Positions 39,001 through 42,000 of a DNA stretch of 64,000 nucleotides are shown here, piece after piece. Location of the stretch: NCBI GenBank assembly GCA_965242995.1, contig CBDETP010000003.1, positions 18,792-82,791 on the forward strand. Direction: 5' to 3'. Made by a program: the position numbers. The DNA comes from Coxiellales bacterium. GTDB lineage: Bacteria > Pseudomonadota > Gammaproteobacteria > CBDETP01. Each line of letters starts with the position of its first letter. The stretch's first letter is position 1.

Positions 39001-42000
39001 GAACGCCAAGTGTCGAAAAATCATTACCAGTTCCTCAAGGTGATGAATTGGCTAATATGAAAGAGCTTGAGGGTTTGTGTGATCACTGGAGTGATGTGAT
39101 GCAAACGGTTGAGTTTTTAAATTTAAAACAACCCAAATTGTTACTTGAGCGTGTTAGAGGTTTGTTAACTAGGGTGGTGATAACAAAAAAAGAAATTAAT
39201 ATTTTACGTGGCTTTTTGTCAGCCGTTGAGAAAAAGCTAATATCACTTAAAAAAACCGAGAATTTATAATGACAAATGAAAAACGGATTTTTTTAGACTA
39301 TATGGCAACCACGCCAGTAGATCTTCTTGTGCAACAAGAAATGATTAATTGCCTACGGCAAGAGGCTGGTGAATTAGCGAATGCAAGCTCAACGCATATT
39401 GCTGGTCGTCAAGCCAAGCAGGTGATTGATCATGCAGCGCAGCAAGTGGCTGATACCATCGGTGCAAAACCTGAGGAAATTGTTTGGACTTCTGGAGCAA
39501 CAGAGGCTAATAATTTAGCGATTAAAGGCGTGGCTTATAGTTACAAGCGCCAAGGTAACCACCTTATTACTTTGCAAACAGAGCATCATGCTGTGTTGGA
39601 TGTTATGAAGCAGTTAGAGGCGGAAGGCTTTGAAATCACCTATTTACCGGTTAATCAAGATGGCTTATTAGACCTTGATGTTTTAAAAGCGGCCATAAGG
39701 TCACAGACTATTCTCATATCTGTTATGCAGGTTAATAATGAAATTGGTGTGATTCAGCCAATTGCTGATATCGCTCAAATTGCACATGAGGCGGGTGTGT
39801 TGTTTCATGTGGATGCGGCTCAAAGTGTGGGCAAGCTGCGAGTTGATGTTAAAGAGCTGGGTGCTGATTTATTATCATTGTCGGCACACAAAGCTTATGG
39901 GCCTTGTGGTATTGGTGCTTTATATATTCGTTCAAAACCACCACTAAAGCTAAAGGTGCAAATGCAGGGCGGCAGTCAGCAGCAGGGCAGGCGAGCAGGC
40001 ACGTTGCCAGTACATCAAATTGTTGGCATGGGTCAGGCTTTTGCATTAGCAGCAAAGTGTTTGGCGGACGACATGAATCGATTAAGTCAACTGCGAGATT
40101 ATTTGTGGCAAGAGCTACAGCTGCTCGGTGGGGTTGTTTGTCATGGTTCCTTAGAGCATCGTGTAGCCAACAATCTCAATGTTGGTTTTGCTGGCGTTCA
40201 TGGTGATGCGCTAATGTATAGTTTTAGAGATCAAATTTTAGTTTCAAGAAGTTCTGCTTGTACCGCCGCCAGCATTGAATCCTCTCATGTGTTATTAGCC
40301 TTAGGGGCAGATCGCTTGCTAGCAAATGCCTCTATTCGCTTTAGCTTGGGGCGAACAACGAGCATGGGTGAGATAGAGCAAGCCATTGGTATTGTTTCTA
40401 GAGCAGTTAAACAGCTTCGTGCATTATCGCCGCTGACGGAGTCCATATGAAGCAATACAGCGACGAAGTAAGGCGGTTTTTTTTCAATCGACAATATGCC
40501 GGCGATTTGGAGGGTCTTAATGTTTATAAGGCTCAAGCAGGAGCTCTAATAAATGGTGATGTCGTTTGTTTTATGTTGAAGATTGAAGAGGGCTGTGTTC
40601 AAGATGTTCGCTATAAAGTTTTTGGACAAGTTCTTACTGTGGCGGCATGCGCGTTTTTTGCGCCACGTGTCATAGGCCTTCGGGTTGATGAAATTGCTGA
40701 GGCGGTGAGTTGGCAGAATTGCTTAGAAGCATTGGCTTTAAAACCAGAACAGCAAAGCCCTTTAATTTTGGTTAGCGCTGCTATTTGTCAGGCCGCGCAG
40801 TGCTATTTAACCAAGTAAAAGCCTTTTGTTAATATTTTTCTGGAATAAAATGCGATAAGAGCTTGCTATTTCATCACAAAAGCGCAATTATTAATCAGAG
40901 GCGTCATTAAATTGACCAAGCGATAGTTGTCTTCAGCTTTAAGGGGGGTGACATGGAACAGCTTGAAATTCATTTGATGTATGGCGATGTGATGGCACAA
41001 GTTGATGCCGAGCAAAGCGTACTGAAAGGTGTGTTGAATGCAATGGATCAGGCCGTTATTTTATTTACGGCGTGGGATTCCATTGTCTGGATTAATAATG
41101 CAACGGCGGATGTGTTGAATCATTCTTTTTCGCATTATCGCGATCGTTCCATTGCTGAGCTATTTGCGGAAGATAATAAAGTGTCACCCGTTGGGTTTTC
41201 CGCACAAGATGACAGCGTTCGTCTACTTCAAAAAAAACAAAGCTTTCAAATAAACAATCAAGAAGAAGAGCTGGAATGGCGGCTTTATGTGGTCTCCGGT
41301 GAGCAGTCGTTGTATTTATTGTTGGGTGAGCGAGTGAAAAGTACCGTAAAATCCACCGATTCCAGCGATGTTTCTTCTTATTTGCATTCGGTTGTTCAGC
41401 AAATGCCAGGAAGTGTTTTTTGGCTTGATGCGCAACACTGTTTTCAAGGTTGCAATCAAGCATTTGTTGATTTTTTTAATTTGCCCGATGAGAAATTTTT
41501 ACTAAATAAAAAGCTTGCGGATGTTGAGCAATTAGAGCAATTCAAAGATTTTTTTAATGATGAAAAAATTATTAACTTAGACAGAGAAGATTTAAAAAAT
41601 GAGTCATTAAGCTATTCATGTGATGATGGCACATTTAAAACAGTCATTGTTAATCGGGTTGCACTGCATAATGATGATCATGCGGTTATTGGAATATTAG
41701 TTAATTTTATGGATGAAAACCAGCATGCAGCATCATCTGTGATTAATGTACCGTCAATTTTGGCCGCTAATGAAGAGAGGCAGGTCAATGCCAGTTTGCC
41801 TTCACGAATGCTCATTGTTGAAGATAATCAAGTATCAGCTGTTGCTATTCAAAATGCATTAGAGGATATGGGTTGTCGAGTGGATTGGGTCATGGATGGC
41901 CAGCAGGCATTAGAGAAAGCCGATCAGTTTGATTATAATTTAATTTTCATGGACATGGATTTGCCTGACATGGGTGGTGTTGAAGTGAGTCGCCGGATTC

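Follow-up and report, generated by a model that had tools for sequence, protein, structure and literature searches.

The gene considered here, referred to as iscU*, lies in a 64,000-nucleotide (nt) stretch from a Coxiellales bacterium (GenBank assembly GCA_965242995.1, contig CBDETP010000003.1, positions 18,792 to 82,791 of the forward strand; hereafter the window, in whose own numbering positions are given). It occupies 40447-40818 and encodes an IscU-fold protein of 123 amino acids (aa) without cluster ligands, assigned by Pfam NifU_N, AlphaFold2 and Foldseek. Directly upstream are iscS (39269-40450), coding for an IscS-type cysteine desulfurase of 393 aa (NCBIfam, Pfam and alignment to Escherichia coli IscS), and trmJ (38496-39269), coding for a tRNA 2'-O-methyltransferase (241.9 bits against the NCBIfam TrmJ/YjtD subfamily model, above its cut-off). 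All three are on the forward strand. They are preceded on the reverse strand by a suhB-type inositol monophosphatase gene (37651-38478; Pfam Inositol_P, 247 bits), the synteny anchor of the canonical isc position in Gammaproteobacteria; in the locus comparison the order suhB(-)-trmJ-iscS was also found in Legionella, Halothiobacillaceae and other loci. The trmJ stop and the iscS start share 1 nt (junction TAATG), which leaves no room for iscR between them, and the ATG of iscU* overlaps the iscS stop by 4 nt (ATGA) and is preceded, 6 nt upstream, by GGAG. Because of the two overlaps, trmJ, iscS and iscU* look like one translationally coupled unit, and the ATGA overlap together with the GGAG Shine-Dalgarno sequence implies that iscS and iscU* would be co-translated.

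None of iscR, iscA, hscB, hscA, fdx, canonical iscU or sufB was found in the 64-kb window by tblastn with queries from reference loci. Downstream of iscU* is a gene for a PAS and receiver-domain protein (40953-42164; Pfam), in which the receiver is C-terminal and no output domain is recognisable. This gene was considered as a member of the unit and rejected, since a 134-nt spacer stands before it and it is not present in any related locus. A preliminary description of this DNA had reported iscS directly after trmJ without iscR, no iscA, hscBA or fdx at the locus, and a PAS-receiver regulator where hscB-hscA-fdx would be expected; the 1-nt overlap, the tblastn searches and the Pfam assignments agree with this arrangement.

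The IscU* product matches Pfam NifU_N (PF01592) with 49.4 bits (cut-off 22), residues 3-122 being aligned with positions 1-122 of the 127 in the profile, and scores 32.7 bits against the NCBIfam IscU equivalog (TIGR01999), far below the cut-off of 192.4. The register of the ligand positions was taken from HMMER alignments to E. coli IscU (3lvl, 2l4x) and from a MAFFT alignment of 125 IscU-like proteins, and the two agreed. Cys37, Cys63, His105 and Cys106 of E. coli IscU correspond to N36, Q61, S104 and P105 of IscU*, and Asp39 is kept as D38. On the forward strand of the window, Cys37-Gly38-Asp39 is replaced by N36-G37-D38 (40552-40560; Cys lost, Gly and Asp kept), Cys63, which is both a ligand and the persulfide acceptor, by Q61 (40627-40629; alignments, codon checked), and L99-P-P-V-K-I-H-C106 by L98-K-P-E-Q-Q-S-P105 (40738-40761), where the HscA-binding LPPVK has become LKPEQ and His105 and Cys106 are lost. 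There is no histidine in the whole protein, and its six cysteines are C41, C50, C68, C92, C114 and C119.

The AlphaFold2 model of IscU*, based on an alignment of 52 sequences, has a predicted local distance difference test score (pLDDT) of 96.6 and shows the three-stranded sheet and the helical bundle known from solved IscU structures. Its best matches among solved structures in Foldseek were human ISCU2 (8pk8_D) and E. coli IscU (3lvl_A), with template modelling (TM) scores of 0.85-0.87 and root-mean-square deviations of 1.7-2.1 Å, and the top structural matches were IscU chains in complex with a desulfurase (IscS or NFS1). Judged from the alignments and the model, IscU* is an intact IscU fold in which the canonical cluster chemistry has been lost. 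A pseudogene or frameshift artefact was rejected because of the clean open reading frame (ORF) and the confident fold prediction, and identity as SufU was rejected because of a score of 23.8 bits against TIGR01994 (cut-off 92.5) and the missing Zn-ligand cysteines. Collinearity of the 123-aa protein with IscU, claimed in the preliminary description, was confirmed by the full-length NifU_N match and the TM scores, and the structural comparison proposed there returned the IscU fold. The concern raised there that a proper alignment might place cysteines at the ligand sites was followed up, and N36, Q61 and P105 were found in these places. The reported ligand replacement stands in that neither alignment has a ligand cysteine, although Leu-Val-Ser, given for the third site, misses the register by a few residues; this slip is harmless because C114, the closest cysteine, comes 9 residues further downstream and histidine is absent from the protein. 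The cysteines reported elsewhere in the protein are real, but C92 had been overlooked.

As the partner enzyme, IscS of the window scores 410 bits against E. coli IscS (1p3w/3lvl) and 255.8 bits against Pfam Aminotran_5, and lies below the cut-offs of two NCBIfam IscS models (496.6 vs. 548 for NF010611; 489 vs. 643.2 for TIGR02006). It is about 50-53% identical to any IscS of the species-representative genomes, the best genome matches (52-53%) being taxonomically mixed. The pyridoxal phosphate-binding lysine K208 in SAHKAYG (39890-39892; K206 in E. coli) and the catalytic, persulfide-forming cysteine C331 in SSACTAAS (40259-40261; C328 in E. coli) were located on the forward strand by alignment, with the codons checked, and the protein looks like a divergent IscS-type enzyme that is catalytically intact. 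The C-terminal helix motif QLRALSPL (40412-40435, forward strand; alignment) is the equivalent of E. coli helix alpha12, the IscU docking site, and a tail of about 13 residues that follows the motif in canonical IscS is missing. Some residues that bind TusA in E. coli IscS are altered in the window IscS (around residues 47-57; W45 to R, E49 to Q and R55 to A, with D52 kept), and for this reason canonical TusA docking may not apply.

In E. coli, the IscU residues in contact with IscS are Y3, Y11, G38, V40, K42, K59-G64 and K103, and IscU docks on helix alpha12 (R379-K391) of IscS, in which deletion of residues 376-404 abolishes binding (PMC2854127). Among 59 ligand-free representatives, the positions equivalent to these contacts were better conserved than the rest of the protein (0.59 vs. 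0.36; Mann-Whitney p = 5e-4), and IscU* itself retains the contact residues Y4, F12, G37, V39, K57 and G60. On the side of the enzyme, the motif L[RHY]x[LMI][SAN]P was present in all five IscS accompanied by canonical IscU, in 9 of the 11 accompanied by ligand-free IscU and in 0/15 without IscU (Fisher p = 1.8e-5), the motif having been defined post hoc and phylogenetically related IscS having been counted as independent. The Legionellaceae enzymes from iscS-only loci end just before the alpha12 helix. The retention of the motif together with IscU* is suggestive of co-evolution of the two proteins.

IscU* is a sequence singleton, the word-indexed protein search having returned only IscU* itself, and when 1.84 billion cluster representatives were scanned exhaustively with HMMER, its best relative was 35% identical. 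Ligand patterns were compared in 125 IscU-like representatives, which are the single-domain matches nearest to IscU* in the HMMER scan. With C for cysteine and x for its loss at positions 37, 63 and 106, the patterns were xxx (60), xCx (20), CCC (16), CCx (10), xCC (9), xxC (7), CxC (2) and Cxx (1). The loss of ligands appears to be ordered: Cys37 goes before the others, and Cys63, which accepts the persulfide in E. coli, tends to be retained longest. P0002 (482 aa) and another protein, P0007 (472 aa), each have three tandem IscU-like domains in which ASRGG replaces Cys37-Gly-Asp, and Cys63 and mostly Cys106 are kept.

A profile built from the ligand-free set recovered 72 proteins, of which those with a species name are nearly all from Legionella, including L. 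pneumophila, and the Legionella proteins are annotated as 'iron-sulfur cluster assembly scaffold protein' or NifU. The layout in L. pneumophila is suhB(-)-trmJ-iscS-iscU*-iscA-fis. In every context examined (Legionella shakespearei, Legionella sp., L. pneumophila and metagenomic relatives), the ligand-free iscU-like gene directly follows iscS, and two loci (L090 and L091) carry suhB(-)-trmJ-iscS-iscU* without iscA, identical to the layout in the window. If a ligand-free IscU-like group of Legionellales is defined, as here, by fold, absence of ligands and gene position, IscU* of the window falls within it, having the predicted IscU fold, no ligand cysteine and a place after iscS at suhB(-)-trmJ. 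No description of a cysteine-free IscU in Legionella, Coxiella or elsewhere was found in the literature searched, and a recent Legionellales genome paper gives 'IscU and IscS' as the iron-sulfur (Fe-S) machinery. As for the source organism, the best named matches of the DnaB encoded in the window (54547-55926) are from Coxiella endosymbionts, C. burnetii and Coxiellaceae metagenome-assembled genomes (69-71% identity), and for IscS and TrmJ the identity is about 50% to Legionella and other Gammaproteobacteria alike. On these identities, the source is a deep-branching Coxiella/Legionella-like bacterium.

The loci compared form a reductive series at the same position. The full iscR-iscS-iscU-iscA-hscB-hscA-fdx set is found in L002, L003, L006 and L009; iscS with a partly degenerate IscU and iscA in L013 and L026; iscS-iscU*-iscA in Legionella; iscS-iscU* in the window, L090 and L091; iscS-iscA in L015; and iscS alone in L012, L017, L020 and L022. 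The Idiomarina and Alteromonadales loci have iscR-iscS alone, sometimes with suf genes nearby. Read against this series, the window locus is one stage in the dismantling of the iron-sulfur cluster (ISC) system and not a minimal ISC system. The label 'minimal ISC locus' used in the preliminary description is misleading, because the locus is probably no Fe-S assembly system at all. Other rearrangements were also seen among the loci. In L013 (4780-7550) and L084 (3650-6688), two tandem genes for class-V aminotransferases (IscS-like) stand after cysE and before a degenerate iscU-like gene and iscA. In L005 (Rahnella rivi FC061912-K, 6001-8536), iscR-iscS is directly followed by a PepB-like ORF of 468 aa; the locus lacks iscU, iscA, hscBA, fdx and iscX, and its IscS has an altered C-terminus (RLRELPPVYTK). 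Most of the isc operon seems to have been deleted naturally in this enterobacterial isolate.

Based on these results, we hold with about even confidence that IscU* is a cluster-incompetent descendant of IscU kept as a non-catalytic partner of IscS, while a SUF system does the bulk of Fe-S assembly. According to this proposal, iscU* would be co-produced with iscS from the overlapping trmJ-iscS-iscU* string, and its product, which could neither bind an Fe-S cluster nor accept persulfide at the canonical site, would dock on the C-terminal helix of IscS as a 'pseudo-scaffold' stabilising or modulating the enzyme. IscS would remain the cell's general source of sulfur, serving tRNA thiolation, thiamine and molybdopterin, and bulk Fe-S assembly would be left to SUF proteins encoded elsewhere. 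We infer that IscU* physically binds IscS, as well as any effect that it may have on IscS activity. That a SUF system elsewhere in the source genome carries out Fe-S assembly is probable by analogy with relatives; Coxiella burnetii has essential sufBCD and sufS genes, and an A-type carrier was not found in it (PMC9997736). The interpretation offered in the preliminary description is partly supported overall: of its two branches, that of a degenerate or repurposed scaffold, for example a desulfurase partner, agrees with all the evidence. The ligands and LPPVK are gone, the fold is intact and the gene is coupled to iscS; the desulfurase-partner branch also fits the conservation of IscS contacts and the co-retention of the docking helix of IscS.

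Several observations weigh against the retention of IscU* as a partner of IscS, in addition to the post hoc definition of the helix motif and the relatedness of the enzymes counted. Two contact residues have changed, K103 to Q102 (reversal of the charge of K103 abolishes IscS-IscU binding in E. coli) and K42 to C41, and some of the conserved contact positions are glycines, which are needed for the fold too. IscU* evolves fast, identity between Legionella species being 32-50% compared with 65-83% for TrmJ, IscS and IscA, and its dN (nonsynonymous divergence) in Legionella being 2.5 to 4 times that of the neighbour genes; none among 15 billion proteins is more than 35% identical to the window protein. 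Moreover, iscU has been wholly lost in sister lineages (L012, L015, L017, L020 and L022) and is thus dispensable there. The fast evolution relative to neighbours, the singleton status, the relatives left with iscS alone or iscS-iscA and the disappearance of all catalytic features would also be expected of a functionless relic, that is, a decaying iscU remnant heading to deletion whose ORF persists through slow loss or through translation coupled to iscS. We regard such a relic as rather unlikely, since the ORF runs its full length uninterrupted by any frameshift or stop, confidence in the predicted fold is very high, and all Legionella species recovered, along with many independent lineages, have kept comparable genes. 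The ORF is intact across the Legionella species with a dN/dS below 1 (at most about 0.35-0.46 in the species pairs that yielded an estimate, and no more than an upper bound given the saturation of dS), the IscS-contact positions are conserved, and the docking helix was not seen in any of the 15 IscS without an IscU gene.

Another possibility is that the cysteines of IscU* are put to use. In a sulfur relay, IscU* would take the persulfide of IscS on a non-canonical cysteine and hand it to a thiolation pathway, as SufU or TusA does. Six cysteines in 123 residues are consistent with this, and C41 would be the first choice, since on strand beta2 it stands in for K42, an IscS-contact residue; the 20 representatives that keep only Cys63 (xCx) are a hint that sulfur relay can outlast scaffolding in the family. 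However, the C41 column is not conserved, lysine being its commonest residue (27%), C41, C50, C92, C114 and C119 are not conserved even in the nearest relatives, and the Legionella versions have no cysteine at those positions, all of which makes a relay improbable. Still less credible, and in our view very improbable, is a scaffold with relocated ligands, in which shifted cysteines would hold the cluster, or the cluster would sit where IscU* meets IscS or a second subunit; the abundant cysteines and the retained Asp38 speak for it. As judged by secondary-structure position and column conservation rather than by Cys-Cys distances, the cysteines are found within strands beta2 and beta3, helix 62-75 (after two turns), helix 89-95 and the last helix (9-14 residues from its start), none of them beside the canonical pocket. 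Only C68 is recurrent, its column holding Cys in 41% of the ligand-free relatives; canonical IscU has Ser at this position, which by helix periodicity probably faces the interior. The other five align with variable columns and with charged residues in E. coli IscU. The absence of histidine from IscU*, the absence of chaperones, ferredoxin and an A-type carrier from the window, and the very low score against the IscU equivalog also argue against cluster binding. The 'shifted cysteine set' put forward as an option in the preliminary description is not supported, as Cys is rare or absent among relatives in the columns of five of the six cysteines and C68 is about two helical turns past the site.

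The possible consequences of a non-catalytic IscU descendant beside IscS extend beyond the organism of the window, since about half of the nearest IscU-like representatives (60 of the 125) are without all three cysteines. Few known proteins are as conserved as IscU, and the presence of its three cysteines is taken as a defining feature. Nevertheless, many bacteria, the pathogen L. pneumophila among them, retain a gene with the IscU fold but no ligand cysteine, always beside IscS, and for this reason the rule 'IscS + IscU = ISC machinery present' in metabolic reconstructions is likely wrong for these organisms. We would tentatively suggest, with less than even confidence, that ligand-free IscU proteins are a widespread and unrecognised class of 'pseudo-scaffolds', serving as dedicated IscS subunits in Legionella, Coxiella-like and other SUF-dependent lineages. 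If the pseudo-scaffold reading is true, IscU* would tune or protect IscS for sulfur trafficking to thio-cofactors and tRNA instead of Fe-S assembly, and L. pneumophila and its relatives would carry a wrong 'scaffold' annotation. Should IscU* be a genuine subunit of IscS, it would be a bacterial case of a scaffold that has become a pseudo-enzyme-like regulator, and a natural system in which IscU docking is separated from the chemistry. The series from full isc through iscS-iscU*-iscA and iscS-iscU* to iscS could reflect a stepwise dismantling of ISC once SUF takes over. The chief value of the case would lie in the correction of annotation in a pathogen group and in a testable example of the change from scaffold to pseudo-scaffold.

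In the remainder of the window, 30 further ORFs were scanned with Pfam, and all were housekeeping genes except for a few without a match. ORFs of the window that lack a Pfam match are at 169-1608, 4809-5579, 10876-11409, 43294-43905, 50505-50906 and 53159-54061 and code for 133-479 aa (Pfam threshold 0.01 for 43294-43905 and 1e-6 for the others). The last of these, of 300 aa, sits between rpsF and rplI, the usual place of priB-rpsR. In 48001-50000 the GC content dips to 0.355 and the GC skew is 0.04, compared with 0.09-0.30 elsewhere, and 48089-49359 contains no ORF of at least 100 aa.

One of the closest known systems is canonical IscU, with which IscU* shares the fold (TM 0.85 to 3lvl), the length, the collinearity and the position right after iscS, as well as the N-terminal Tyr, the Gly-Asp of the Cys-Gly-Asp motif, the FK..G of strand beta3 and Asp39. 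IscU* differs from IscU in the lack of Cys37, Cys63, Cys106, His105 and the LPPVK chaperone motif, and in its rate of change; for canonical IscU, E. coli and distant Gammaproteobacteria share about 80% identity, whereas IscU* evolves several times faster. The 127-aa 'scaffold' or NifU proteins of L. pneumophila (P0139-P0141) are likewise ligand-free and are encoded after iscS at suhB(-)-trmJ, without iscR, hscBA or fdx, but they are only 19-24% identical to IscU*, have also lost Asp39 and are followed by an intact iscA.

SufU, the Zn-dependent sulfur transferase of the SUF system in Gram-positive bacteria, also has the IscU fold and partners a cysteine desulfurase without being a scaffold, and is thus a precedent for the repurposing of this fold. 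Unlike IscU*, it has three Cys and an Asp as Zn ligands, a Cys persulfide acceptor and a characteristic insertion, and its structural matches to IscU* are weaker (TM 0.6-0.75 in Foldseek). ISD11 (LYRM4) is a small non-catalytic protein that keeps the eukaryotic desulfurase NFS1 stable and active; it offers a functional analogy only, as its fold and binding site are unrelated. The iscS-only loci of SUF-bearing Gammaproteobacteria (Idiomarina and Alteromonadales; L007, L008, L011, L019, L021 and L023) resemble the window in that, at the same position, the function of iscU has been lost and IscS has been kept, and sufB is nearby in several of them. In contrast to the window, iscU is gone entirely from these loci, iscR is often kept and the docking motif of IscS has been lost.

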